Shown one piece after another: positions 3,536 to 59,160 of a stretch of DNA of 64,000 nt. The notes under the pieces are model-generated. The model was given only the letters and a program-made list of their open reading frames with translations. It did not search any database and was not told the origin of the DNA. Numbering within the stretch: the first letter of the stretch is position 1; each line of letters starts with the position of its first letter. This DNA comes from Verrucomicrobiota bacterium (GTDB taxonomy: Bacteria; Verrucomicrobiota; Verrucomicrobiia; Limisphaerales; JACDHS01): NCBI GenBank assembly GCA_013820875.1, contig JACDHS010000007.1:6246-70245 (forward strand), in the 5' to 3' direction. Position numbers and translations under genes: made by a program.

Positions 3536-4291
3536 TCAGCTTCCCCTGTTCATCTGGCGCAGGAGGGAATACTTGAGATGCACTTCGCGGGCGCAGATCC
3601 GGGCGATGCGCCAGCCCTGGCCTCCATCGAGAAAGCCGCCTCGCAAGACGTAATAACGAAACCATTTAAACGCACCGCGCGCGTGCGGCGCGAGGAGAGT
3701 CGCGCGTTTGCCGGACTCGGACTGCATCTCTGCCCAGAGTTGCGCGTATTTCTGGCACCGCGCCCAATGATCAGCAACATCGCGAAAAGAATAATGGTGC
3801 AGGTCGCCACGAAGAGCCGTGATGGAACCGGCGATCTCAAGGCGTTCGTGAACTTTCCCGCCGCTGAAACGCGCCGTTGATTTTCGGAACAAGCGAACCA
3901 GACGATCCGGATACCAATCGCCATGCCGAATCCAACGGCCTTCATACAAAACACAACGCGGCATGCTGAACCCGGCAATCTCTCGCGCAGGTTCAATCTT
4001 TTTAAGAGCGGCAATTTCTTCCCGGAGCGTCGGTGAAAGTTCCTCATCAGCATCAATGCTGAAAACCCACTCGTTTGTGGCGAGGTGCAGCGCCAGATTC
4101 TTTTGGCCAACGTAGCCCAGCCAATCCTGATGAACGAACCGGGCGCAGAATTGCTGGGCGATGTTCTGGGTTCCATCCGTGCTGCCGGAATCGACAATCA
4201 GAATGTCATCGGCGAGATCAGCGCAACTGCGCAGGCAGCGCCCCAGGTTTTCCTCTTCATTGAGTGTGATAATGCAGAACGAAATTTTCAC
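3536..4291 (-). CDS. Family 2 glycosyltransferase (LPS core type, KdtX/WaaE-like)
   Basis: 251 aa. The N-terminus ISFCIITLNEEENLGRCLRS...ILIVDSGSTDGT and the SIDADE (DxD) motif are typical of GT2. Its start overlaps the upstream GT9 stop by 4 nt, which suggests one operon. Confidence 0.85.
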   Translation of the reverse strand: MKISFCIITLNEEENLGRCLRSCADLADDILIVDSGSTDGTQNIAQQFCARFVHQDWLGYVGQKNLALHLATNEWVFSIDADEELSPTLREEIAALKKIEPAREIAGFSMPRCVLYEGRWIRHGDWYPDRLVRLFRKSTARFSGGKVHERLEIAGSITALRGDLHHYSFRDVADHWARCQKYAQLWAEMQSESGKRATLLAPHARGAFKWFRYYVLRGGFLDGGQGWRIARICAREVHLKYSLLRQMNRGS

Positions 4292-6237: not shown

Positions 6238-6480
6238 GAAACCACAGATGGTGTGTAGGCGCAAAACGGAGCGCGGCGTAACCGCAAAGCGGTTCGTCGT
6301 TTCTATAGTTCTGATTTGTGCGAAGCATCAGCCGCAGCACGTGAGATTGTTCGAGCGGTTTGAAAATCTGAACGCCGCAATCAATGCAGTCCCCGCTGCG
6401 GCTGATCCTTCGGACACAGCCGCGCTCCGTCTCGGACCTGCTTTTTTTATCTGTGTCCATCTGTATTCATCTGTGGTTTC
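6238..6480. repeat. 243-bp nested-inverted-repeat (MITE/REP-like) element filling the GT2-msbA gap
   Basis: There are three perfect inverted-repeat pairs. GAAACCACAGATG at 6238-6250 pairs with 6468-6480. ACGGAGCGCGGC at 6266-6277 pairs with 6419-6430. ATCAGCCGCAGC at 6327-6338 pairs with 6395-6406. The right end carries three tandem ~10-nt motifs (CACAGATG type). Confidence 0.8.
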
Positions 6481-8629: not shown

Positions 8630-8972
8630 CTGATTTGCGGTCAATCCGGTCTGTCGTGAGGCGTTTTACAGCGAATATTGGTCTTCGACAGGCTGTCGTG
8701 AAGCGATTTACGGCAAATATCGGTCTACTACAGGCTGTCGTGAGGCGATTTACGGCGAATATCGGTCTACTACAGGCTGTCGAAGGACGATTTACGGCGA
8801 ATATCGGTCTACTACAGGCTGTCGTGAGACGATTTACGGCGAATATCGATCTACTACAGGCTGTCGAAGGACGATTTATGGCGAATATCGATCTACTACA
8901 GGCTGTCGAAGGACGATTTACGGCGAATATTGGTCTGCTACAGGCTGTCGTGAGGCGATTTACGGCGAATAA
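8630..8972. repeat. Tandem array A1: 42-bp unit, about 8 copies
   Basis: The anchor CTGTCG recurs at 8651, 8693, 8735, 8777, 8819, 8861, 8903 and 8945, exactly 42 bp apart. The unit is roughly CTGTCGTGAGGCGATTTACGGCGAATATCGGTCTACTACAGG, with two alternating variants (GTGAGG / GAAGGA). Confidence 0.95.
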
Positions 8973-10656: not shown

Positions 10657-10818
10657 AGCACGTAGTGGCAGGTTTTCCAACCTGCCAGTTCGAACGACTT
10701 TCCAGTTACGCCGCGCTCCGAATTTGTGCAATCTCACCCGTTTAAATCACACCCGCGGGAGAATGCAGGCTCTCGCAAGGCTTGCGAAGCAAATCGATAA
10801 CCGCTTAAGTTTCTTATT

Positions 10819-19300: not shown

Positions 19301-22027
19301 TTAAGAATTTTTTACCGGTTTTCTGTGAAGAACTGGTTTGAGATATTGGCCGGTGTAAGATTTTGCGCATCGGACAATTTCCTCCGGTGACCCTTGCGCG
19401 ATGATTTCTCCTCCTCCGCCGCCCGCTTCAGGTCCGAGATCAATCACCCAATCAGCTTCCGCGATAAGATCAAGGTTATGCTCGATGACGATGACGGAAT
19501 GTCCGGCATCCACAAGGCGTTGAATGACCTCCACCAAACGCCGCACATCGGCCATGTGCAGCCCGATTGTCGGCTCTTCCAGGATGAATAGTGCTGATTT
19601 CTCCTTCTTGATGGGCAGGCCGAGTTCCGCTTGCTGCGCCTGCGCCCTGGTTTTTAGCTTCTGGTCAGATGCTGGATTCTTCAGGCCGCTAAGCAAATGC
19701 GTGACGAGCTTGATCCGTTGCGCTTCACCGCCGCTGAGCGTCGGGCTGGTCTGGCCAAGTTTCAGATAATCAAGGCCAGTATCGCGCAACGCCTCCAGCG
19801 GACGACGAATCTTTTGAAATGCACCGAAGAACTCCAGCGCTTCCGCGATGCTGAGTTCCAGGACTTGCGCGATGTTCTTGCCCGCGAATTCGATATCGAG
19901 GGTTTCGAGGTTGAAGCGGCAACCTTCGCATACTTCACACCGCACAAAGGACGGCGGCAGGAAATTCATCTCCAGTTTGATCGTGCCGGCGCCCTGGCAT
20001 TCCGGGCAACGCCCCTGCACGCTGTTGAAAGAGAAGCGACTTGCTGAATAACCGCGCAAGCGCGCTTCCGGAAGTTGCGCGAACAGGTTGCGAATCTCGT
20101 CGAAGAAACCAACGTAAGTCGCTGGAATTGACCGAGGCGTCCGGCCAATCGGCGCCTGGTCCACTTCGTAAATGGCAGAAATCAGATCGTCCCCTTTTGT
20201 GATTTTCCCGAACTCGCGATCCCCTGATGTATCGCCTTTCAGTTTCGCTCGGAGCACCGGAAGCAGACAGTCATGAATCAACGTGCTCTTGCCCGAACCG
20301 CTCACGCCGGACACCGCCACAAACCGGTTCAACGGAATTTCTACGGTCACATTCTTAAGGTTGTGCAGTGACGCTTTATTCAAAACCAGCCGGGCAGATT
20401 TTTTTTCGACAGGACGCCGTGTGCCGCGATGCGGGAAACGCTTGTGCTCGCGCAGACACTGACCGGTGATTGAGTTTTTGTTCCGCTTCAGCTCAGACAA
20501 AGTTCCCGCTGCCATTACTTCGCCGCCATGAACGCCTGCGCCCGGCCCCAGATCGATCACGTAATCTGCGCGTCGCATCGTTTCTTCGTCATGCTCCACA
20601 ACGACGAGCGAGTTCCCCCGCTTCTTCAGGAGGTCGAGCGCGTGTAGCAGATGCTCATTGTCGCGGGCATGCAAACCGATGGTTGGCTCATCGAGGATAT
20701 AAAGGACACCGGTGAGGTTGGATCCAAGTTGTGCGGCGAGCCGAATGCGTTGCGCTTCACCACCCGACAAAGTGGTCGCACTGCGGCCGAGTTGCAAATA
20801 GCCAAGCCCGACTTCACGAAGAAATTTCAGCCGCTCATGAATCTCCGGCAAAATATCGCGCGCAATTTCCGCTTCGCGACCTTGGATTTTCAATTCAGCA
20901 AAAAATGAAATTACGTCATCCACGGCGGCGTTGCCGATGTCAACAATGGTAGGACAGGCGCTTTTAGTGGAAGGAAACAGGCGAGACGCCTGTTCTACTC
21001 TAAGGCGCACCGCACGCGCGATCGGGTTTAGGCGGGTGCCGTTGCATTCCGGGCAAAGCTCGCGTTTGCCTTCCTGCCAGCCGAACCATGATTCTTCGAT
21101 GGCATCCGCGCGCGCGCCGCGGTCCACCTCCGGCAGATAAAAAAGCTCACCAAACCCGCGACAATTTCCGCACCAGCCTTGCGAGGAATTGTAGCTAAAG
21201 TTTTTCGGGTCGAGCACTGCGAAAGAATCACCGCACCTCGGACAAGCGCGATGCGTGGAATGAACAGACGTTTTACCATCCTTGCCGAGTGCGTAAAGCG
21301 TGCCGTTACCGAGGCGCAACGTTTCATCAATCAGTTGCTGCGGAGATTTCTCCCATGCCCTGGCTCGTTTCGCGAGCACGCCAGTGACGATTTCCACATC
21401 GTGTTCCTTGAACCGATCAAGCCGAAACGGTTCGCTCGTCGAATACATTTTCCCATCGGCGCGGAGTTGTTCGTAATCGTGCTTGGCAGCCCATTGCGCC
21501 ACATCGCTGTGAAAACCTTTCCGATTTTTCACAACCGGAGCGAGCAGGGACAAGTTTCCGCGACGTTTCACTTCCTCCTGAAGTTTGCGTCCGATCTCAT
21601 CACGCGTTTGCGCTTGAACCGCCAGGTCGCATTTCGGGCAGAACTGCGTTCCGAGCCGGGCATAGAGCAGTCGCAGGAAATGATATACCTCGGTCACTGT
21701 GGCAACGGTGCTTTTGCCGCCGCCGCGGGAAACCCGTTGTTCAATGCTCACCGTCGGCGGAATGCCGGTGATGAGATCCACATCCGGGCGGGCCATTTGC
21801 TCAACGAACTGGCGGGCATAGACGTTCATGGAATCCAAAAACCGGCGTTGCCCTTCCGAGAAGAGAAGGTCAAATGCCAGCGTGCTTTTTCCCGAACCGC
21901 TCACGCCGGTAATGACGACAAACTTCCCTCGCGGAATCTGCAGGGAAAGGTTTTTCAGATTGTGTTCACGCGCGCCAATAATGGAAATGGCGTCACTGAC
22001 AGCGAACTCTGTTTTGTCGTCCAACAT
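19301..22027 (-). CDS. uvrA: UvrA-family excinuclease ABC subunit A (closer to canonical; short insertion domain)
   Basis: 908 aa with two ABC modules (GVSGSGKSTL twice, LSGGEAQR twice). Zn-finger cysteines are CPKC...CPRC, CGNC...CPEC and CPEC...CEVC. SIEQR..GGGKSTVATVTEVYHFLRLLYARLG aligns with E. coli UvrA as I recall it. Confidence 0.85.
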   Translation of the reverse strand: MLDDKTEFAVSDAISIIGAREHNLKNLSLQIPRGKFVVITGVSGSGKSTLAFDLLFSEGQRRFLDSMNVYARQFVEQMARPDVDLITGIPPTVSIEQRVSRGGGKSTVATVTEVYHFLRLLYARLGTQFCPKCDLAVQAQTRDEIGRKLQEEVKRRGNLSLLAPVVKNRKGFHSDVAQWAAKHDYEQLRADGKMYSTSEPFRLDRFKEHDVEIVTGVLAKRARAWEKSPQQLIDETLRLGNGTLYALGKDGKTSVHSTHRACPRCGDSFAVLDPKNFSYNSSQGWCGNCRGFGELFYLPEVDRGARADAIEESWFGWQEGKRELCPECNGTRLNPIARAVRLRVEQASRLFPSTKSACPTIVDIGNAAVDDVISFFAELKIQGREAEIARDILPEIHERLKFLREVGLGYLQLGRSATTLSGGEAQRIRLAAQLGSNLTGVLYILDEPTIGLHARDNEHLLHALDLLKKRGNSLVVVEHDEETMRRADYVIDLGPGAGVHGGEVMAAGTLSELKRNKNSITGQCLREHKRFPHRGTRRPVEKKSARLVLNKASLHNLKNVTVEIPLNRFVAVSGVSGSGKSTLIHDCLLPVLRAKLKGDTSGDREFGKITKGDDLISAIYEVDQAPIGRTPRSIPATYVGFFDEIRNLFAQLPEARLRGYSASRFSFNSVQGRCPECQGAGTIKLEMNFLPPSFVRCEVCEGCRFNLETLDIEFAGKNIAQVLELSIAEALEFFGAFQKIRRPLEALRDTGLDYLKLGQTSPTLSGGEAQRIKLVTHLLSGLKNPASDQKLKTRAQAQQAELGLPIKKEKSALFILEEPTIGLHMADVRRLVEVIQRLVDAGHSVIVIEHNLDLIAEADWVIDLGPEAGGGGGEIIAQGSPEEIVRCAKSYTGQYLKPVLHRKPVKNS

Positions 22028-22065
22028 CTGAAATGTTTAGCACGACTTTCGGGCGGGGGCTAATT

Positions 22066-22230
22066 GGGTTTAAAGTTTAAGGTTTGAAGTTCAAGGTTGG
22101 GAGAAAGATTTAACGTGCTGTCGATCTTGCTGGCAGCGCTTGCCTTCTCCCTCTCTCTTTCCGAAGTTCAAGGTTGGGAACGCCACCCTTAACTTTGAAC
22201 TTTGAACCTTAAACTTTGAACTAAACTGCC
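22066..22230. repeat. Short-period palindromic element (TTTAAGG/TTCAAGG type)
   Basis: GGTTTAAAGTTTAAGGTTTGAAGTTCAAGGTTGGGA on the left is mirrored by ...CCCTTAACTTTGAACTTTGAACCTTAAACTTTGAAC on the right. There is also a direct repeat of GAAGTTCAAGGTTGGGA near 22088 and 22161. Confidence 0.6.
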
Positions 22231-22235
22231 ACAAA

Positions 22236-22269
22236 CAACCGGCTTGATGCATGAAGCTCAAGCCGGTTG
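22236..22269 (-). terminator. Perfect 12-bp hairpin downstream of the DUF3309 ORF
   Basis: CAACCGGCTTGA (22236-22247) pairs with TCAAGCCGGTTG (22258-22269) across a 10-nt loop, 22 nt past the stop at 22292. The T tract is weak. Confidence 0.45.
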
Positions 22270-22291
22270 CGAGTCGTTCTTGATCGTGTCG

Positions 22292-22450
22292 TTATATTCG
22301 TCCCAGCAGAACCAGAATGAGTAAGATCAACAGGATCAATCCGACAATGCCACTCGGCCCGTATCCCCAACCGGCGCTGTAGCCCCAGGTGGGAACCACG
22401 GCCAGGAGCAGCAAAACCATTAGGATTATCAGAATTGTTCCGAGGGTCAT
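22292..22450 (-). CDS. DUF3309-family small membrane protein (52 aa, below the ORF-track length cut-off)
   Basis: Hand translation gives MTLGTILIILMVLLLLAVVPTWGYSAGWGYGPSGIVGLILLILLILVLLGRI-TAA. The two-helix architecture and the P.W.YS.GWGY.PSG core match DUF3309 as I recall it. GAGG lies 7 nt upstream of the ATG. Confidence 0.7.
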   Translation of the reverse strand: MTLGTILIILMVLLLLAVVPTWGYSAGWGYGPSGIVGLILLILLILVLLGRI

Positions 22451-22479
22451 AATAGCCTCACTTTCTTACAGTCTGTCAG

Positions 22480-22911
22480 TTATCGGTCATCGATTTTAAT
22501 TTCGGCCCCATTGGGGGTGCGTTGCGCATCGATATCCACATCTACCCCGTTTCTCCTGATTGCTTCGCCTCCCGCGGCTTCATCCATTTTGATCATGATG
22601 TCGTTCTTGACGAACTGAACACCATCGGCTGCCCGGGCGAGTTCTTCCGCGCGTTGTTTTTGATCCGGACTATCCACGAATCCGGTCAATTGAACTGTCC
22701 CCCTGAAAGTATCCACCTTCACGTCCATGCCTGACACGTCAGGGTCGGCGAGTAACTTACTCTTGACGCGCGCTGTTGTCCCAGCGTCGTCAAAGGTCTG
22801 ACCTGTGCTTCGGCTGTAACGATCACCAGCGCAACCCGTGGAGAAAGTCACCAGGGAAACTGCCGCAATCATACAGGCGAACAAACCGCATTGTTTGATG
22901 AATTTTTTCAT
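22480..22911 (-). CDS. BON-domain lipoprotein (OsmY-like)
   Basis: The internal ATG at 22911 gives MKKFIKQCGLFACMIAAVSLVTFSTGC (lipobox), then AGTTARVKSKLLADPDVSGMDVKVDTFRGTVQLTGFV.SPDQKQRAEELA, a typical BON domain. The 259-aa track ORF adds an implausible Arg/Pro-rich extension. Confidence 0.8.
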   Translation of the reverse strand: MKKFIKQCGLFACMIAAVSLVTFSTGCAGDRYSRSTGQTFDDAGTTARVKSKLLADPDVSGMDVKVDTFRGTVQLTGFVDSPDQKQRAEELARAADGVQFVKNDIMIKMDEAAGGEAIRRNGVDVDIDAQRTPNGAEIKIDDR

Positions 22912-23120
22912 AATACGTTTTACTTTCGCTACAAACGTAAGTGGTGGGAAAGGTCCGTTCAATTGGTGCAAGACCCTGTTTCCAGTTGCCCGAGTTTTGC
23001 TCAACCGTGGATAGGAAAACTTCCTGAATGGCAGGGGATAGCAGCGCCAGCAATGTGCTGTCAGCGTCGTAGCTCGGACTTTCCGGTCTGCTGCACCGAT
23101 TGCGACTCGCCGCGCTGTGG

Positions 23121-26100
23121 TCAGGAAAGCACCTGGCGTAGCGCACGCCCAGTATGGCTCCCTTCCTGGAGCAACACCTCTTCCGGGGTGCCGACCGCGA
23201 CGATTTCGCCACCGCGATCCCCAGCCTCCGGCCCGAGGTCGATCAGCCAATCCGCACATTTGATGAGTTCAAGATTGTGTTCGATGACCACGACAGAATT
23301 CCCGGCTTCGACGAGTTTATGGAACGCTGCCGTGAGCACGCGAACATCGTCGAAATGCAAACCGGTTGTGGGTTCATCAAAGAAAAACATTGTTGGTTTG
23401 CCGGAGCTTTGCTGACGACCGAACTCGGCCAGGTGACTGACCAACTTTAACCGCTGACTTTCCCCGCCTGACAACGTGTTGATCGGTTGGCCCAGCCGCA
23501 GATAGCCCAGTCCAACTTCCTGCAACAGTTGCAGCGCACGAATGGCGTGTTGCGCGTGACGGCTTTGCGTGAGGCTTTGCAGAAAATGAATCACCTGGTC
23601 GGCACTCGCCTCCAGCAGATCGGCAATGTTCCATTGCACACTTTCCATTCGGGAATTTCGGAGCGACGAACCGGGCACGCTACCGTCCACCTTGATTTCG
23701 AGAATGTGCGAGCGATAACGGCGCCCGTCGCAATCCGGGCAACGAATAAAAACATCGCTGAGAAATTGCATCTCGATTTTCTCGAAGCCAGCACCGCGAC
23801 AACGCTCGCATTGGCCCTGGCTGGAATTGAAACTGAACGCACTGGCATTCAACCCACGTTGTTTGGCGACTTCTGTCTGTGCAAATATCTCGCGAATATC
23901 ATCAAAGGCCCCGATGTACACCGCCGGATTGGAACGAGGCGTCCGGCCAATCGCTGTTTGATCCACCAACAGGACGCGCCCGATGCTTTCGAAGCCGCGC
24001 AGATCCACTTCGGAATGCGGAGCGCGAAGCGCGGACTTTTCGTCGCCGTCATTCGCGGAATCATCCTCCGTCGTTTCAATCTCTGACGGAGCTTGCGCGT
24101 TTATCCTTTCTTCCAATGCAGGCAGGAGCACATCCCGCACAAGCGTGGATTTGCCCGAGCCGCTCACACCCGTGATGCAGACAAATCGGCCAAGAGGAAT
24201 TTCGACGGTGACATTACACAGGTTATGCGCCGTTGCACCGGTGATCTTTAAGGCAGGACAGGCATCCTGCCTGTCCCTCGGAGCTGATGCATCGCGAGAA
24301 ACTAAAGAGCGGTTGTCCACGTTTCTTGCGCTTCGAGCTCTTTTGCCATTCTGGGAGAGGCAGGATGCCTGTCCTGCTTTACGGCGTTCCGGCACTTCTA
24401 TCGCCTTGCGACCGCTTAAGTATTCACCCGTAAGCGAACCTTTCGCTTTAAGAATGTCACGGTAGCGTCCCTGGAAAACAATCTGTCCCCCGGTTTCGCC
24501 ATGGCCCGGGCCGAGATCAATTATCTCATCCGCAGCCCGCATCACATTCGCTTCGTGTTCAACGACCACCACGGTATTTCCGACATCGCGCAGGCGTTGC
24601 AGAATTTCAATCAGCCGATCGGTATCACGCGGATGCAATCCGACACTTGGCTCATCCAGGACAAACAACGTATTCACCAGGCCCGAACCAAGACAGGTGG
24701 TTAGGCTGACACGTTCGGTTTCGCCCCCGGAAAGCGTGCGGGTCGGTCGATCCAGGGTTAGATAACCCAGTCCGACTTCGTTCATGAACGAAAGTCGCGC
24801 CCGCACTTCATGCAATGCCAGCGTTAAAGGATCGGACGTCCTGGTGTGCTTGCGTCCAGCCGCCAGCGATTCGATAAACTGCAACGAATCGCGCAGGGAA
24901 AGCTGGTAGAAATCGGAGAGAGATAACTTCGCTGGTCGCCTTTTCCCGGAAGACTCAGAGAGGCGGGGTGTCTCTACTACTTTGTAGAGCAACGTGTCTG
25001 GTTGGAAACGCGCCCCGTGGCAATCGTCGCAGGGGCGGTAACTTCGGTAACGCGAGAGCAACACGCGCACATGCATTTTGTAGGATTTGGATTCCAGCCA
25101 GCGGAAATAACCTTTGATCCCGTACCAGGCTTTCGGCCACTGATGATTGTCATCCATGCCGTAGTTCGGTTCGCCGTTGATGACCCAGTCCTGGAATTCG
25201 TTCGGCAGATCGCGAAACGGAACATTGGTGGGGATATGACGTTTGCGACAGAATTTCATCATGTCATCCTGACACTCGGCGCTTTGACCGGTTTGCCACG
25301 GCTTCACCACTCCGCCCGCTAATGTTTTCGAACGATCCGGTATCGCCAGGTTGTAATCAATGGTGATGACCCGTCCGAACCCGCGACAGGTCGGACAAGC
25401 GCCGAGCGGATGATTGAAACTGAACAAAGCGGGAACCGGCTCGCGATAATCAATGTCGCACTCCGCACAATGCAAGCGGTTGGAAAATGTTTGCGTGCGG
25501 GTTCCAGCTTTCGAGTGGCCGGCCTCCGAAAAATGTAAAGTGAGTTTCCCTTTTCCGAAATGATAGGCCTGTTCGCACGCTTCAATAAAACGATGCCTAT
25601 TGGTCGGCGCGATTTTAATACGATCCTGAACGACCGTCAGCACAACAGCTTTCAATGCGGAAAGTTGAGCCGTCGCCTCTTCCAGACGTTTGATTTCACC
25701 CTCCACCAGCAACCGTTGGTAACCTTGCTTTGCCACCAGGTTAAGCGTTTCGGTGAGCGGCAGCTTTTCGGACAGCGGCAGTTTGAACGTGATAAGAATT
25801 TCGGAATGCGCGGCGGAGTTTGGCGCTCCGCCCTGGCTCACCGTTTCCCAAATCTTCTGTGGCGAATCTTTTGTCACAGGCCTGCCGCATTTTCGGCAAT
25901 GCAATTGTGCCAGGTGCGCCCAGAGCACTTTTGCGTAATCGCAAATCTCCGTCATCGTTCCGACAGTGGAGCGAGTCGTTTTGACGGCGTTCCGCTGTTC
26001 GATGGCGATGGCCGGTGGAATTCCCTCAATGCTATCGACCTGTGGCTTGTCCATCCGATCGAAAAACTGGCGGGTGTAAGGCGAGAACGTTTCAATGTAG

Positions 26101-26294
26101 CGACGTTGCCCCTCCGCAAACAAGACATCGAACGCCAGCGAACTCTTCCCTGAACCGCTCAAACCAGTGATCACCACCAGTTTTCCAATCGGCAGGTCGA
26201 GATCGAAATTCTTGAGATTATTATGCCGCACACCACGGAGGCGAATAAACTTTGGCGCGGACTTCTTTTGCATGCGGGCGAAACCTAATTGCAA
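23121..26294 (-). CDS. Divergent UvrA-family ABC ATPase (UvrA paralogue) with extra insertions
   Basis: 1057 aa. It contains GLSGSGKSSLAFDVLFAEGQRRY, LSGGETERVSL, GVSGSGKSTL and LSGGESQRLKL, with Zn-finger Cys pairs. It diverges from the neighbouring UvrA in the region between Zn fingers. It also carries an in-frame palindromic element in the inter-module linker and an acidic insert (ETTEDDSANDGDEKS). Confidence 0.85.
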   Translation of the reverse strand: MQLGFARMQKKSAPKFIRLRGVRHNNLKNFDLDLPIGKLVVITGLSGSGKSSLAFDVLFAEGQRRYIETFSPYTRQFFDRMDKPQVDSIEGIPPAIAIEQRNAVKTTRSTVGTMTEICDYAKVLWAHLAQLHCRKCGRPVTKDSPQKIWETVSQGGAPNSAAHSEILITFKLPLSEKLPLTETLNLVAKQGYQRLLVEGEIKRLEEATAQLSALKAVVLTVVQDRIKIAPTNRHRFIEACEQAYHFGKGKLTLHFSEAGHSKAGTRTQTFSNRLHCAECDIDYREPVPALFSFNHPLGACPTCRGFGRVITIDYNLAIPDRSKTLAGGVVKPWQTGQSAECQDDMMKFCRKRHIPTNVPFRDLPNEFQDWVINGEPNYGMDDNHQWPKAWYGIKGYFRWLESKSYKMHVRVLLSRYRSYRPCDDCHGARFQPDTLLYKVVETPRLSESSGKRRPAKLSLSDFYQLSLRDSLQFIESLAAGRKHTRTSDPLTLALHEVRARLSFMNEVGLGYLTLDRPTRTLSGGETERVSLTTCLGSGLVNTLFVLDEPSVGLHPRDTDRLIEILQRLRDVGNTVVVVEHEANVMRAADEIIDLGPGHGETGGQIVFQGRYRDILKAKGSLTGEYLSGRKAIEVPERRKAGQASCLSQNGKRARSARNVDNRSLVSRDASAPRDRQDACPALKITGATAHNLCNVTVEIPLGRFVCITGVSGSGKSTLVRDVLLPALEERINAQAPSEIETTEDDSANDGDEKSALRAPHSEVDLRGFESIGRVLLVDQTAIGRTPRSNPAVYIGAFDDIREIFAQTEVAKQRGLNASAFSFNSSQGQCERCRGAGFEKIEMQFLSDVFIRCPDCDGRRYRSHILEIKVDGSVPGSSLRNSRMESVQWNIADLLEASADQVIHFLQSLTQSRHAQHAIRALQLLQEVGLGYLRLGQPINTLSGGESQRLKLVSHLAEFGRQQSSGKPTMFFFDEPTTGLHFDDVRVLTAAFHKLVEAGNSVVVIEHNLELIKCADWLIDLGPEAGDRGGEIVAVGTPEEVLLQEGSHTGRALRQVLS
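24253..24377. repeat. GGACAGGCATCCTGCCTGTCC-type palindromic element inside the UvrA-paralogue CDS
   Basis: GCAGGACAGGCATCCTGCC (24254-24272) is the perfect reverse complement of GGCAGGATGCCTGTCCTGC (24359-24377). The 25-nt GGACAGGCATCCTGCCTGTCCCTCG at 24257-24281 is identical to 47360-47384 in glnS. Confidence 0.85.
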
Positions 26295-29304: not shown

Positions 29305-29350
29305 ATATGAGTTGCACGAATTTTCACAACGCGACAAAGCCGCAATTAGC

Positions 29351-29384
29351 GGAGCGCGGCTGTGTCCGAAGGATCAGCCGCAGC
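29351..29384. repeat. Second copy of the GGAGCGCGGCTGTGTCCGAAGGATCAGCCGCAGC core
   Basis: All 34 nt are identical to the reverse complement of 6395-6428. Flanking similarity (CGCTCGAAC.ATCTCAC) continues to about 29450. Confidence 0.85.
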
Positions 29385-35458: not shown

Positions 35459-35800
35459 AAACACGTATTTTTCCTGTTTTGTGAGTCACGGAGGTCGTGA
35501 AAAACGTATTTCGCGTGTTTTGTGAGTCACAGAAGTCGTAAAAAATATATTTCACGTGTTTTGTGAGTCACGGAAGTGGTGAAAAATATATTTCGCGTGA
35601 TTTGTGAGTCACGGAAGTGGCGAAAAATATATTTCACGTGATTTGTGAGTCGCGGAAGTGGTGAAAAATATATTTCACGTGATTTGTGAGTCACGGAAGT
35701 GGTGAAAAATATATTTCACGTGATTTGTGAGTCACGGAAGTGGTGAAAAATATATTTCACGTGATTTGTGAGTCACAAATGTCGTGAGAAACGTATTGGT
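35459..35800. repeat. Tandem array A2: 41-bp unit, about 8 copies
   Basis: GTGAGTC recurs at 35481, 35522, 35563, 35604, 35645, 35686, 35727 and 35768, exactly 41 bp apart. The consensus is GTGAGTCACGGAAGTGGTGAAAAATATATTTCACGTGATTT. Central copies are near identical and edge copies are degenerate. Confidence 0.95.
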
Positions 35801-38071: not shown

Positions 38072-38848
38072 TCAGAACTTCAGGTTCCAATCGTCCCTTC
38101 TATATTTCTCATCTGCAAGGCTGCGATGGTCTGGAATCTCGGAGAGGAGTTGGTGGGCACCCCATACTTCGCGGAGAGCGGCTTTGATTCGTTCAGCCGG
38201 CAGGTTGAGGTTTGTGATAAACGCTTCGTGCGGCCGGTTATGGCGGTAATCCGGTTCTTTGGAAGGCATTTGCAGGAGTTTTGCGATCAACGGGAGATCG
38301 AAATTGAGCAGAAAGGTGCCGTGGAATACAAGGAATTGACGTTTGCGACGTTGAGCGTTGCCGGAGAATTTCAAATTGCTGAGAGCAAGATCGGTGTGGC
38401 CGCGCACAACGGGTGGGGTGATGGAGTGTTGGAGTGTTGGAGTATTGGGACTGTCGGTTTCCACGACTCCATTACTCCAATACTCCATTACTCCCTCAAT
38501 CGCCTTTCTCTGCCGTTCCATGACAAACTCGTTGGTCTTCGGAATGGTTTCCACCTGTGGATTGCCTTCGATTTGCAGGACGAGGTTGTAATTCAGGCAC
38601 CCCGGCCCTTGCAGCACTGTTCCGCCACCGCTGCAGCGGCGTAGTATGGGGACTTTCGCTGTTTCGCAGGCGAGGCGATTTACCTCCAGCTCCACCTTGT
38701 TGGCGTAACCGACGACCACGAAATATTCGGGGGATTCCCAGAAACGGAGCGTTTCTTCCCCGTGGCCGGATTCGCACCAGTCGAGCAAAGCTTCGTCCAT
38801 GGCAAGATTCTCAGCTGGAGTTGGGAGGGATAGATCAAGAAGCTTCAT
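38072..38848 (-). CDS. Lipoate-protein ligase / octanoyltransferase family (BPL/LPL catalytic domain) with an in-frame repeat insertion
   Basis: 258 aa. It contains RR.SGGGTV.QGPG.LNY and KFSGNAQRR. It is divergent from the pyruvate dehydrogenase operon, whose E2 subunit needs lipoylation. Confidence 0.8.
   Translation of the reverse strand: MKLLDLSLPTPAENLAMDEALLDWCESGHGEETLRFWESPEYFVVVGYANKVELEVNRLACETAKVPILRRCSGGGTVLQGPGCLNYNLVLQIEGNPQVETIPKTNEFVMERQRKAIEGVMEYWSNGVVETDSPNTPTLQHSITPPVVRGHTDLALSNLKFSGNAQRRKRQFLVFHGTFLLNFDLPLIAKLLQMPSKEPDYRHNRPHEAFITNLNLPAERIKAALREVWGAHQLLSEIPDHRSLADEKYRRDDWNLKF
38417..38494. repeat. GGAGTATTGGAGT-type palindromic element inside the lplA-like CDS
   Basis: GGAGTGTTGGAGTGTTGGAGTATTGGGA faces TCCATTACTCCAATACTCCATTACTCC across an approximately 18-nt loop. 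It encodes ...EYWSNGVVETDSPNTPTLQHSITP.... Confidence 0.85.
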
Positions 38849-41717: not shown

Positions 41718-41744
41718 TGAAACCCCGGTTTGAGACCAAACGGA

Positions 41745-41815
41745 GCATTGGAGCAATGGAGTGCTGGATTATTGCGCTTATTCCATTTTTCCATTACTCC
41801 ATTACCCCACGTTTT
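41745..41815. repeat. GGAGCAATGGAGT-type palindromic element in the aceE-aceF spacer
   Basis: TTGGAGCAATGGAGTGCTGGATTATTG faces TTATTCCATTTTTCCATTACTCCATTACC. This is the same family as 38417-38494 and the single arm CACTCCAATACTCCAATGCC at about 43128-43150. Confidence 0.75.
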
Positions 41816-41819
41816 TAAT

Positions 41820-43127: not shown

Positions 43128-43166
43128 TGCCAGCACTCCAATACTCCAATGCCCCCCTCTCCTAAC

Positions 43167-45945: not shown

Positions 45946-46139
45946 TGCTTTCCGTTTCGTACCGTCAGGTGTGCGGTGAATGGTAGGACTGATCGCATCG
46001 AATCGCGTTCTTTTCAGTCACAAAGCATATTATGGGATTTATCGATTCAATAGGAATTCGCGTGGTTTGCGGACAGGTGCGAAAGCTTCATCCGGGTGAA
46101 TTGTTGAAAAATAAGGGTTTTTTCACTTAGGTCGCCAGA

Positions 46140-46400
46140 AACGTGGGCGACACGGTCTCATGGTTAACTTTCTTTTCCGGAAACGCCACCGAGACGGTCT
46201 CATGGCCACCTTTTTTTCCGGAAACGCCGCCGAGACGGTCTCACGACCACCTTTCTTTTCCGGAAACGCCGTCGAGACGGTCTCATGGCTACCTATTTTT
46301 TCCGGGAACGTCGCCGAGACGGTCTCATGGTTAACTTTTTTTTCCGGAAACGTCGTCGAAACGGTCTCACGACGACTTTTTTTTCATATCAAAACGGTTC
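46140..46400. repeat. Tandem array A3: 41-42-bp unit, about 6 copies
   Basis: ACGGTCTC recurs at 46152, 46194, 46235, 46277, 46319 and 46361. The unit is roughly GAGACGGTCTCATGGCCACCTTTTTTTCCGGAAACGCCGCC. It contains the palindromes GAGAC-G-GTCTC and TTTCCGGAAA plus a T tract. Confidence 0.9.
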
Positions 46401-46507
46401 AGATGGTCTCCTGACTTGCCTTCCGGAGACTCAGAAATGAAGGCATTCGTTGCGCGGGTTCCTCGCCGGATTTTAGGGTCTGATTGGGTATGGCGCCTTT
46501 AAGAGAA

Positions 46508-46837
46508 GGAACCACGAATGTACACCAATGAACACTAATCCTAAAAACCGCAGTTTAACCGCTAATCTGCGCTAATAGTCGCTAATGGAAAAGCGGTTAC
46601 GTGAAAACAAAGGCTTCACCCCAACAGGTAGTTGGCTTTTTCAAGCGGCATTCTTCGCAATCCCCTCTGATTAGCGGTCATTAGCGTAGATTAGCGGTAT
46701 TGAACTGCCTCGGATTTAGGCTAATTAGGATGGCCAGAATTCCGCATCATAGTCGGCCCACCACATGGTGAATTGAATCATACAACAACAGGGTGTAATC
46801 AAACTCGGTTCCTTATTGGTGTTTATTCGTGGTCACG
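46508..46837. repeat. Composite 330-bp element with nested inverted repeats made of triple short motifs
   Basis: The outer arm GGAACCACGAATGTACACCAATGAACACTAAT (46508-46539) faces GGTTCCTTATTGGTGTTTATTCGTGGTCAC (46808-46837). The inner arm AACCGCTAATCTGCGCTAATAGTCGCTAATGG (46558-46588) faces CTGATTAGCGGTCATTAGCGTAGATTAGCGGTAT (46667-46700). Confidence 0.8.
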
Positions 46838-46846
46838 GAGCAACCT

Positions 46847-46951
46847 GATTTCACCTGGTGAAATCGTACCCGAATCATCCCCCGTTCCCGTCAGCCTTGA
46901 GCTTAATGGAACCCTCCATTGCACTGCTTGCAAACTTCTGTAAGTTTGCAA
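46847..46951 (+). promoter_or_regulatory. Two perfect palindromes in the glnS leader
   Basis: GATTTCACC-tg-GGTGAAATC lies at 46847-46865. TTGCAAACTT-ctgt-AAGTTTGCAA lies at 46928-46951 and ends 8 nt before the glnS ATG. The function (operator or 5'-UTR hairpin) is not established. Confidence 0.35.
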
Positions 46952-46959
46952 CCCGAACT

Positions 46960-48810
46960 ATGACGATGCCGACAGGTGACAATCCGGAAACCGAAACCAG
47001 CAAAGTTCCTTCTGATTTTATTCGCGACATTGTCGCGCAACATCTCGCCGAGGGGAAATATCCGCAGATCCATACCCGTTTTCCGCCGGAACCAAATGGT
47101 TACCTGCACATCGGCCATGCCAAATCCATTTGCCTGAACTTCGGCATCGCCCGTGATTTCGGAGGCATTTGCAACCTGCGCATGGACGATACCAATCCGA
47201 CCAAGGAAGAGGTCGAATACGTCGAATCCATTCAGAAAGATGTTCAATGGCTGATCAGTGATTGGGCAGACGACAAGATTGGGCTCAAGCCCAAAGGCGA
47301 AACGCCGGAGCAAAAGGATGTAAATGGAAAAACAGATTTCCATCTGCCCGCTAAAGTAGGACAGGCATCCTGCCTGTCCCTCGAATCCGCAGACGGGGAC
47401 AGGCAAGATGCCTCTCCTACGCTTGAACCCTTTTACGCCTCCGATTATTTCGACCCGATTTTCGAATACGCCCTTCAACTCATCAGAAAAGGGAAAGCCT
47501 ACGTCTGCGATCTTTCTCCAAAAGACACAGACGAATATCGTGGCGCACCCGATCGGCCTGGAAAAGAAAGTCCCTGGCGCAATCGCAGCATTGAAGAGAA
47601 CCTCGACCTTTTCCAACGAATGCGCGCTGGTGAATTCCCGGATGGCACCCGTTCACTCCGCGCCAAAATTGACATGGCTGCGCCGAATGTTTGGTTACGC
47701 GACCCGTTGCTTTATCGCATCCGTCACGCCGAACATCATCATACCGGCAGCAAGTGGTGCATCTATCCTCTTTACGATTTTGCCCACTGTCTCAGTGATT
47801 ACATCGAGGGGATTACTCACTCCATTTGCACCTTGGAATTTGAGGTGCACCGCCCCCTTTACGATTGGATTCTGGAATCGCTCGAACTCCCGCGTCCGCG
47901 TCCGCATCAATATGAATTTGCCAAGCTGATTCCCAGTTACATGATCGTCTCCAAGCGCAAGCTCATTCAACTCGTGAACGAGAAGCTCGTGACCGGCTGG
48001 GATGATCCTCGCCTGCCGACCATCTCCGGCATTCGTCGCCGCGGAATCACAGCGCAGGCCTTGCGTAATTTTGCCATCGGGGTGGGTGTGACCAAATACA
48101 TCTCTGTCACCGACATTGCCGTTTTCGAACACGCCATTCGCGAGGATCTCAACAAACGCGCGCTCCGTCGTCTCGCCGTGCTCAGGCCGCTCAAAGTGGT
48201 CATCATCAATTATCCTGAAGATAAAATTGAAGAACTGGACGCCACCAACAATCCGGAAGACCCGAACGGCGGCACGCGTAAGATACCTTTCAGTCGCGAG
48301 CTTTACATTGATGCCGACGACTTCATGGAAGTGCCTGCCCCGAAATATTTCCGGCTGAAACCGGACGGAGAAGTGCGTCTCAAATACGCTTACATTATCA
48401 AGTGCGAAGAGGTGGTGAAAGATGCCGATGGCAATGTAACGGAACTCCGTTGCACCGCGGATCTCGACAGCAAAAGCGGTGGCGCCACCTCAGGCCGCAA
48501 GATCAAGGGAACCATCCACTGGGTCAGTGCGGAACACGCGGTAGATGCTGAAGTTCGACTTTACGACCGCCTTTTCACTGTTCCAGAGCCCGATGCCGAC
48601 GGTGATTTCAAAAAGCATATCAATCCCAACTCACTGCAAGTGATTACGGCCAAGTGCGAACCCTCTCTTGCTGGAGCCAAACCCGGAGAACGTTACCAGT
48701 TCGAACGCCTCGCCTACTTCTGCCTCGATCAGGATAGTGCCCCAGGAAAGCTGGTTCTTAACCGGACGATCACCTTGAAAGATGCGTGGTCGAAGGAAGT
48801 GCGGAAGTAG
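46960..48810 (+). CDS. glnS: Glutaminyl-tRNA synthetase with an in-frame insertion
   Basis: ATG at 46960 gives 616 aa. It has the HIGH motif ([14 protein letters not shown]) and the KMSKS variant (IVSKRKL). It is collinear with E. coli GlnRS as I recall it, except for about 50 extra residues after QKDVQWL. Confidence 0.92.
47357..47420. repeat. 64-bp palindromic element inside the glnS CDS
   Basis: GTAGGACAGGCATCCTGCCTGTCCC (47357-47381) faces GGGGACAGGCAAGATGCCTCTCCTAC (47395-47420) with 2 mismatches and a 13-nt loop. It encodes ...[22 protein letters not shown].... Confidence 0.9.
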
Positions 48811-59052: not shown

Positions 59053-59160
59053 CGGAACGCCGGATTTATCCGGCAGCAATCTCCAAACTAAACGGTGATC
59101 CGATAAATAATGGCAGGTCGCTCCAGTATCTCGCTGCTGCCGGATAAATCCGGCGTTCCG
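59053..59160. repeat. Palindromic element with 25-bp perfect arms
   Basis: CGGAACGCCGGATTTATCCGGCAGC (59053-59077) is the exact reverse complement of GCTGCCGGATAAATCCGGCGTTCCG (59136-59160). Each arm contains its own CCGGAT(T/A)(T/A)ATCCGG palindrome. Confidence 0.9.

Follow-up and report, generated by a model that had tools for sequence, protein, structure and literature searches.

The stretch of DNA analysed here, hereafter the window, comprises 64,000 nucleotides of a contig (JACDHS010000007.1, assembly GCA_013820875.1) from a bacterium of the phylum Verrucomicrobiota. It contains glnS, the gene for glutaminyl-tRNA synthetase (GlnRS), and within glnS, in frame, lies a short palindromic element whose anatomy is that of two inverted repetitive extragenic palindromes (REPs) joined in a hairpin-forming doublet (REPIN). 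The glnS open reading frame (ORF) runs without interruption from 46858 to 48810 on the forward strand and opens at a GTG codon at 46858; translation likely starts at the ATG at 46960, or else at 46966, where the 614-aa NCBI protein begins. Its product is 100% identical to a Verrucomicrobia protein in NCBI (P0001) that derives from a metagenome-assembled genome (MAG) and is named glutamine--tRNA ligase. It matches the Pfam families tRNA-synt_1c, tRNA-synt_1c_C and tRNA-synt_1c_C2 (PF00749, PF03950, PF20974) and, with E = 2e-208, solved GlnRS structures. The HIGH motif (H50-H53) is invariant in a 40-sequence alignment, and VSKRK is present.

The element consists of a left arm of 25 nt, GTAGGACAGGCATCCTGCCTGTCCC, a loop, TCGAATCCGCAGAC, and a right arm of 26 nt, GGGGACAGGCAAGATGCCTCTCCTAC (coordinates of this and the other features are collected in Table 1). 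An earlier sequence-only reading of the window had recognized a hairpin in frame within glnS and counted two mismatches between its arms, and both points were confirmed. That reading began the element at 47357 and gave it 64 bp with a 13-nt loop; because the G of GTAGG sits at 47356, the element is 65 nt long and its loop 14 nt. It supplies codons 133-154 (V133-T154) of the 616-aa reading, that is 22 residues, the last codon ending at 47421. The GTAG head (47356-47359) and the CTAC (47417-47420) mark its two ends, each unit is a hairpin with a 9-bp stem and a 3-nt loop, and both units pair into one long hairpin. The RNA fold of this hairpin in a 101-nt context reaches -45.8 kcal/mol (z = -6.4, 0/200 shuffles as good); the hairpin, whose stability the earlier reading had proposed to check, is thus far stronger than chance. 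As DNA, positions 47357-47420 (64 nt, without the first G) fold with -22.4 kcal/mol (z = -7.3), and the left unit alone with -10.2 kcal/mol (z = -5.4).

How much of the GlnRS insert is made of repeat could be determined by comparison with homologues. Sixty-one residues separate VQWL from ASDYFD, in agreement with the large extra segment previously noticed between these motifs, and residues 105-155 are extra with respect to solved GlnRS, being placed between residues 104 and 105 of the P. aeruginosa enzyme (5bnz). At this site every one of about 200 Verrucomicrobial GlnRS homologues has a segment of 42-90 residues, with or without a repeat, and its conserved body reads GWADDKLGLKPKGKTPE..NGK.DF.LP..VG...LEPFY, or in a wider form (I)xGWADDKLGLKPKGKTPE..NGK.DF.LP..VG...LEPFY. 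The repeat part of the roughly 61 extra residues amounts to 22 aa, with a net gain of 15 aa (45 nt) over the nearest relatives. The claim that the approximately 50 residues in excess of the E. coli protein come from the repeat must consequently be abandoned, since 44-48 of them belong to the conserved lineage-wide insert, which is present in repeat-less relatives. The sequence-only reading had regarded relatives that carry the same residues without the repeat as evidence for an ancestral GlnRS loop; such relatives exist for two thirds of the insert, and none were found for the repeat. The alignment of GlnRS orthologues that it had proposed recovered the conserved insert in all homologues and confined the repeat part to 22 aa. 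The approximately 45 residues that Verrucomicrobial GlnRS has in addition form a true conserved subdomain and are not repeat sequence. In an AlphaFold2 (AF2) model, residues 107-127 form three short beta-strands (residues ~100-130 being confident, pLDDT 72-87), and residues 140-152, within the repeat-encoded part, have pLDDT < 50. The tip of the insert is a surface loop, hypervariable and probably disordered.

Table 1. Coordinates, in window positions, of glnS, its in-frame doublet and the related copies (aa, amino acids; CDS, coding sequence)
Feature	Position	Strand	Basis
glnS (glutaminyl-tRNA synthetase) CDS	46960..48810	+	ORF listing, Pfam, protein identity, solved GlnRS match
Conserved lineage-specific part of the GlnRS insert, 34 aa, not repeat-derived	47254..47355	+	homologue alignment, AF2
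REPIN-like doublet, 65 nt, in frame	47356..47420	+	sequence, RNA and DNA folds, absent from syntenic L001/L002
Left REP unit: GTAG head and perfect hairpin GGACAGGCA-TCC-TGCCTGTCC	47356..47380	+	DNA fold
14-nt spacer/loop of the doublet (TCGAATCCGCAGAC)	47381..47394	+	sequence, RNA fold
Right unit, inverted (iREP), CCTAC at end, 2 mismatches to left unit	47395..47420	+	sequence, fold
Second REPIN, 29-nt arms, 75-nt spacer	24249..24381	-	arms 93% complementary; DNA fold z = -7.2
Third, degenerate copy (GTAGAACAGGCGTCTCGCCTGTT...GCGCCTGTCCTAC)	20949..20998	-	sequence comparison, fold

The repeat is not confined to glnS. A 25-nt core occurs exactly twice in the window (0.00 expected), at 47359-47383 and, in a UvrA-like gene, at 24256-24280. 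The sharing of this core with the UvrA-like gene had been seen before, one nucleotide further on (24257-24281), and the view that the segment is a dispersed repeat and not GlnRS-specific sequence is upheld by the exact recurrence. In the second REPIN both heads have mutated together, to GCAGG and CCTGC (GCAG/CTGC). It lies in frame in the UvrA-like ORF 23121-26294 (minus strand), reads ...KAGQASCLS...DRQDACPALK... and occupies the linker between the UvrA-like halves, which is about 55 aa long here, the median over 43 homologue segments being 17 aa. The third copy is in frame in the adjacent UvrA-like ORF 19301-22027 (minus strand), where it reads VEQASRLFPSTKSACPT. The REP class thus has 3 loci and 5 units in 64 kb, with 3/3 loci intragenic, and no further units of the class were found in the ~6.8 kb past the 3' end of the window. 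Two GTAG-headed hairpins of other sequence, at 10662 and 58864, are intergenic, the usual location of REPs. The two UvrA-like ORFs (19301-26294, minus strand; 908 and 1057 aa) stand in tandem about 1.1 kb apart, and the gap between them carries a 31-nt inverted low-complexity repeat (22068-22221). The pair may be a split or interrupted 'double UvrA', because most of its best homologues are single proteins of ~1800-1960 aa.

A scan for GTAGGACAGGCN5GCCTGTC in one genome per species (1.2e12 positions) located the unit in at least 120 genome stretches from Verrucomicrobiota, Planctomycetota, Acidobacteriota, Chloroflexota, Cyanobacteria, Nitrospirota and other phyla. The class unit can be written GTAGGACAGGC-loop-GCCTGTC(C), and among the matches listed there were 23 head-out doublets with spacers of 5-108 nt. 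With 18 specified bases about 17 isolated chance matches are estimated, and chance is ruled out for the 23 doublets. Units are depleted in coding sequence: among the matches listed, 35% of 163 fell inside long stop-free frames versus 73% of random positions. Nine of the ten host frames of intragenic units that were tested proved to be real genes. In other bacteria (L091, L106, L013, L061) in-frame units were seen in DnaE (HHH_6 region), in Mfd/TRCF (CarD_TRCF_RID region), in an alpha-2-macroglobulin and in a methylase of MmeI type, a set of hosts that echoes the published bias to replication and repair genes.

The class is also associated with REP-associated tyrosine transposases (RAYTs). In the nearly complete genome of a Cylindrospermum (L011), a 177-aa ORF that scores 94.5 bits against the NCBIfam family REP_Tyr_transpos (cutoff 80) has a class unit on both sides. 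Furthermore, RAYT-like domains with RAYT as their best family (64.7 and 72 bits), again with units on both sides, were found in the Verrucomicrobia L048 and L208, the former by means of a hidden Markov model (HMM) built from homologues of the L011 RAYT. A word-indexed protein search with the cyanobacterial RAYT as query gave only cyanobacterial proteins among the best 120 named matches. Two side observations concern RAYT genes as such. That of L011 contains its own in-frame REP-like unit (3933-3958; GTGAACAGGCGAGACGCCTGTTCTAC, EVNRRDACST) between the HUH and Tyr motifs, and on a freshwater contig (L168, 6624-7301) a RAYT-like ORF scoring 72.6 bits against REP_Tyr_transpos (cutoff 80) lies about 0.8 kb downstream of glnS.

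Tagging of REPs by GTAG and their link to RAYTs were reportedly described by Nunvar in 2010. GTAG-type REPs and REPINs have been treated by Bertels & Rainey 2011 (PMC3116915), Ton-Hoang 2012 (PMC3333891) and Di Nocera 2013 (PMC3733652), and the E. coli enzyme TnpA(REP) acts on single-stranded DNA (ssDNA) only, needs GTAG plus a hairpin and cuts between C and T in CTAC (PMC3333891). The glnS element and its class resemble these repeats in the 5' GTAG head, in the hairpin unit of 20-40 nt, in the head-out inverted doublets with variable spacers, in the cleavage-type sequence, CC followed by TAC, at the end of the iREP and, at the level of the class as a whole, in dispersed copies depleted in coding sequence and in the units flanking the RAYT of L011. 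They differ from usual REPs in that all three loci of the window are intragenic and that the stems of their hairpin units are perfect, a mismatch in the stem being required by the E. coli enzyme; and the class spans many phyla, unlike the usual REPIN-RAYT systems, which are described as lineage-specific. With the bacterial interspersed mosaic elements (BIMEs) of E. coli the doublet has in common a REP and an inverted REP with a short linker; on BIMEs, TnpA(REP) acts as ssDNA. BIMEs, however, are strictly extragenic, often form tandem arrays, have another sequence and combine heterologous y and z units.

A precedent is found in the same phylum. Opitutus terrae has the largest number of GTAG REP dimers that lie within genes and encode 20-30 aa, and both of its uvrA genes contain them (PMC3733652); here too a dimer encodes 22 aa in frame, and UvrA-like genes are among the hosts. 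The families differ (those of O. terrae are GTAG-17 to -20, with VGPALAAG and TGGTPVP), and GlnRS was not reported. GTAG REPs in tRNA synthetase genes are known from Xanthomonas oryzae, Erythrobacter litoralis and Sphingopyxis alaskensis, and Di Nocera 2013 argue that inserts sit in linkers and loops (PMC3733652). Neither the peptides GQAS and DACPT nor the motif ACAGGC appear in the supplementary tables of that study, which does not describe a single loop used recurrently by several REP families within a clade, save for a remark on recB in two Xanthomonas species. The glnS element is therefore a new instance of a published phenomenon, whose GlnRS host and multi-family hotspot (see below) are not in the 2013 tables.

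The sequence-only reading had looked for a precedent elsewhere, in the Rickettsia palindromic elements (RPEs). RPEs are said, after Ogata et al. 2000, to form families with their own conserved peptides, to be translated and to lie, as is thought, on protein surfaces. They measure ~150 bp and are inserted in frame in housekeeping genes (PMC10969869), and to that extent the glnS element is like them, a palindromic selfish repeat in frame in a housekeeping gene. That it might be a member of an RPE family, or else a classical miniature inverted-repeat transposable element (MITE) derived from a DDE-type insertion sequence (IS) with terminal inverted repeats and target-site duplications, is nevertheless very improbable. 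With 65 nt and 22 aa it is far from RPE length, RPEs are found in Rickettsia with no RAYT link known, and the GTAG/CTAC tags are those of REPs; RPE-4 and RPE-6 have been equated with REPs of the CGTC type, whereas the glnS element is GTAG-tagged. Neither IS terminal inverted repeats nor a target-site duplication are present: there is no direct repeat at the junctions, where gctaaa precedes GTAGG and gcttga follows CCTAC, no parent IS was found, and the enzyme associated with the class is a RAYT and not a DDE transposase. RPEs thus provide an analogy, the anatomy being that of a GTAG REP doublet.

The element is missing from the nearest relatives. Of the homologues with DNA, L001 and L002 are the closest (protein identity 85% and 84%, BLASTP). 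They share with the window the gene order VitK2_biosynth, glnS, UDG, Exo_endo_phos, and 24 nt in them correspond to 69 nt of the window, so that the closest syntenic orthologues lack the repeat. The three nearest relatives and the neighbouring clade with a 45-aa insert are also without it. Loss in the sister lineage of the window's organism does not appear to be supported by these comparisons. Since the window derives from a MAG and repeats are typical sites of mis-assembly, an artefact of assembly or binning might be suspected; we give this hardly any credence, as the frame is intact over both junctions, part of the window is found again in an independent Logan assembly, and the element occurs at the same codon in independent assemblies (L003, L105, L166 and L183; clusters P0006 to P0114).

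The same loop tip has received inserts of several kinds. Those of class A, to which the element of the window belongs, encode GQASxLS...DRxDACPT (for example in L003, L105, L166 and L183). Those of class B encode GRAGSPLPA...GAHGVTRPT, and the DNA of two class-B alleles is another GTAG REP doublet, GTAGGGCGGGCAGTCCCCTGCCCGCC...GCGCCCTAC (family GTAGGGCGGGCAG...), which begins 4 nt downstream of the class-A start and in another codon phase, and must therefore be an independent event. A further hairpin class, SPHPNPLPQGERG...GGEDKGEG, is present in L186 and L189, other alleles contain low-complexity inserts of heptamer type (SAIRNPQSAM, KSEIRNPKSEI, STLNSQLSTS), and a class-E insert (PRLDRxTARAAAAVAA) is not a hairpin (z = +0.8). 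The occurrence of other repeat families at one loop tip indicates a permissive insertion hotspot. Moreover, variants specific to single genomes were observed. The glnS and uvrA-like copies of the window have in common the loop ATCCT and the tail cctcg; in the MAG WYBW01 the glnS copy and an unlinked copy have in common the loop GTCGC and the tail tcca; and in L183 an identical change, G>A / C>T, is found in all 4 half-stems. Such variants would fit repeated insertion, or homogenization from the REPs resident in each genome. For a link of class-A alleles with REP density on their contigs the data, 2 units/84 kb versus 1 unit/504 kb, are too few.

These alleles also bear on the idea that selection maintains the hairpin as an RNA or DNA structure (a pause site, an mRNA stabilizer, an RNase target or an attenuator), the peptide being incidental to it. 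The hairpin is very stable, class-A arms are far better conserved than the spacer, and REPs do affect mRNA stability (PMC3733652). However, significant folding at the loop tip was restricted to alleles with REP-type inserts, and short alleles, including those of the closest relatives, were without significant structure (z -3 to +2). The proposal that a hairpin is always selected at this site is thereby ruled out, and the hairpin is not required for glnS function. Prediction of intrinsic terminators and attenuators detected no U-tract or terminator-like site at the element, an Rfam search of the window gave 0 matches, and the unit also occurs in unrelated genes and in intergenic DNA. We consider a selected structure improbable.

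The anatomy of the doublet, its dispersal, its absence from the nearest orthologues, the association of its class with RAYTs and the loop-tip hotspot are all observed, and together they make it likely, in our judgement, that the glnS element is a GTAG-headed REP doublet (REPIN) that arrived by insertion or copying and is tolerated at the tip of a lineage-specific GlnRS loop. The doublet is composed of two hairpin units of ~25 nt with GTAG heads, inverted with the heads outward. Such elements are non-autonomous and depend on a single-copy RAYT of the HUH/Y1 type that binds GTAG and the hairpin on ssDNA and cuts between C and T in CTAC. This biochemistry is established for E. coli; for the genome of the window, mobilization by a RAYT is inferred by analogy. 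A copy could have reached the loop tip by insertion, or by copying, driven by the RAYT or by homology, from another copy in the genome. It may have survived there because the net addition of 45 nt is a multiple of three, because the GC-rich unit is open in two of three frames (the frame that divides G from TAG being closed), and because the loop is tolerant. Most likely the 22 encoded residues would be carried along neutrally, the strong mRNA hairpin being a side effect that the gene tolerates; there was no indication that either the peptide or the hairpin has a function.

Several observations weigh against an explanation by REPIN insertion. Neither a regular expression nor an HMM from 120 cyanobacterial RAYTs detected a RAYT in the 64-kb window, none was found in the ~6.8 kb past its 3' end, and the requirement of E. 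coli TnpA(REP) for a mismatch in the REP stem is at odds with the perfect hairpins seen here. The AF2 model of GlnRS is poor overall (mean pLDDT 58.8), and weak because it was built from homologues at least 75% identical. With 65 nt in the element and a net gain of 45 nt, the event did not consist of a clean insertion into an L001-like allele; a loss of ~20 nt or a different ancestral allele must be assumed, and a simple insertion leaves the junctions unexplained. Furthermore, all five class-A alleles with DNA (window, L003, L105, L166, L183) have a common nucleotide junction, the start GTnGGACA coming right after one codon and the end CCTAC just before (C/T)TnGARCC. Finally, the short allele of L001 resembles, weakly, a collapsed single unit (10/2000 shuffles as good; post-hoc, p ~ 0.005).

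The last two points would be expected if there had been one ancient insertion, inherited vertically, lost or decayed in many lineages, and with its arms refreshed by conversion or RAYT strand exchange. The 63-aa insert of most class-A proteins, with spacers loosely alike (e.g. PSS.E.V.R), and the partial forms, P0115 with the right arm only and L166 with degenerate heads, also agree with such a history. We nonetheless regard a single ancient event as rather unlikely. It must account for the three nearest relatives and the 45-aa clade, all without the element, and a shuffle test detected no significant remnant signal in the short allele of L002. Intergenic doublets in L041, L046 and L061 match the 63-aa alleles (L105, L003) in length (71 nt), with similar spacers, so that alleles of equal length need not go back to one origin. 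Class B, for its part, certainly arose separately. The neighbour-joining (NJ) protein tree is too unresolved for event counts, because even the GKTHxD state, which is clearly homologous, takes 16 steps over 29 taxa, and a Fitch parsimony count of gains and losses on the loop-masked tree was therefore dropped. The shared class-A junction would be compatible with targeting, or with one old insertion and conversion, and in this connection the Val-Gly codons of the empty alleles are GTCGG or GTGGG, one mismatch from GTAGG.

A second synthetase gene provided a related case. In L048 (97-2340) a 748-codon stop-free frame joins valyl-tRNA synthetase (ValRS), a REPIN (VGQASRLSPENDHGRDARAT), a RAYT-like domain, a REP together with a REPIN, and again ValRS. 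In 32 of 118 ValRS clusters, 242-285 residues separate WWGHRIPxW from DVLDTWF, versus 21-38 in plain ValRS; full-length carriers have 1086-1163 aa, and a few partial sequences are also among the 32. The carriers belong to Chthoniobacterales, Terrimicrobiaceae and the 'Spartobacteria' clade, and most of their clusters have precomputed matches to PF01797. Down to ~55% identity, the HUH motif is kept in 30/32 and the Tyr motif in 32/32 clusters. In a distant member, L208 (3001-6300), the domain is framed on both sides by in-frame REP units that belong to the superfamily of the glnS element and are each followed by one and the same spacer. The embedded domains score below the 80-bit equivalog cutoff for RAYTs and far above IS200. 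In the searchable literature no report of a RAYT together with ValRS was found. If confirmed, this REP-RAYT-REP unit within ValRS would represent an unusual way of anchoring a domesticated transposase in the genome.

The presence in glnS of at least two GTAG families and of other repeat types, together with the RAYT-like domain in ValRS of a sister clade, is the basis of a bolder and, we stress, tentative proposal. Surface loops of aminoacyl-tRNA synthetases in Verrucomicrobiota might be recurrent, possibly targeted, landing pads for REPs and REPINs, with essential genes serving as safe harbours; the glnS copy might then be live and homogenized by a RAYT, and GTnGG Val-Gly codons might be a preferred target. 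We think this possible, though doubtful. Independently of it, one GlnRS loop tip reused by different repeat families constitutes a natural experiment on insertion-tolerant sites and on the target preference of RAYTs, and the glnS element adds another documented case of selfish palindromic DNA translated within an essential enzyme. Its main use is in annotation, where the peptides 'GQASxLS' and 'DRxDACPT' can serve to flag REP-derived sequence.

The window is rich in other repeats. Three tandem arrays (8651-8971, 35478-35776 and 46138-46385) have periods of 42, 41 and 42 nt, 5-8 copies and 86-93% matches; their consensus units are unrelated, and the third is found a short way upstream of glnS. 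From the VitK2_biosynth-like gene to glnS the spacer (45946-46959), which is ~50 nt in L001/L002, here extends over ~1 kb and is filled with repeats, namely that 42-nt array and inverted repeats of 29 nt (46558-46586 and 46670-46698). A repeat family, GCTGCGGCTGATCCTTCGGACACAGCCGCGCTCCG, has perfect 35-nt inverted copies 23 kb apart (6395-6429 and 29350-29384) and diverged copies at 6267-6296, 6317-6338 and 10691-10720, and a perfect 26-nt inverted repeat with a 56-nt spacer is found at 59053-59160. Low-complexity repeats with a period of 7-8 nt (CTCCAATACTCCATTACTCC and others) occur at 38424-38503, 41742-41817, 43128-43156 and 22068-22221, and heptamer repeats like those of the window also stand in frame in GlnRS and ValRS loops of other lineages (KSEIRNPKSEI, SAIRNPQSAM).

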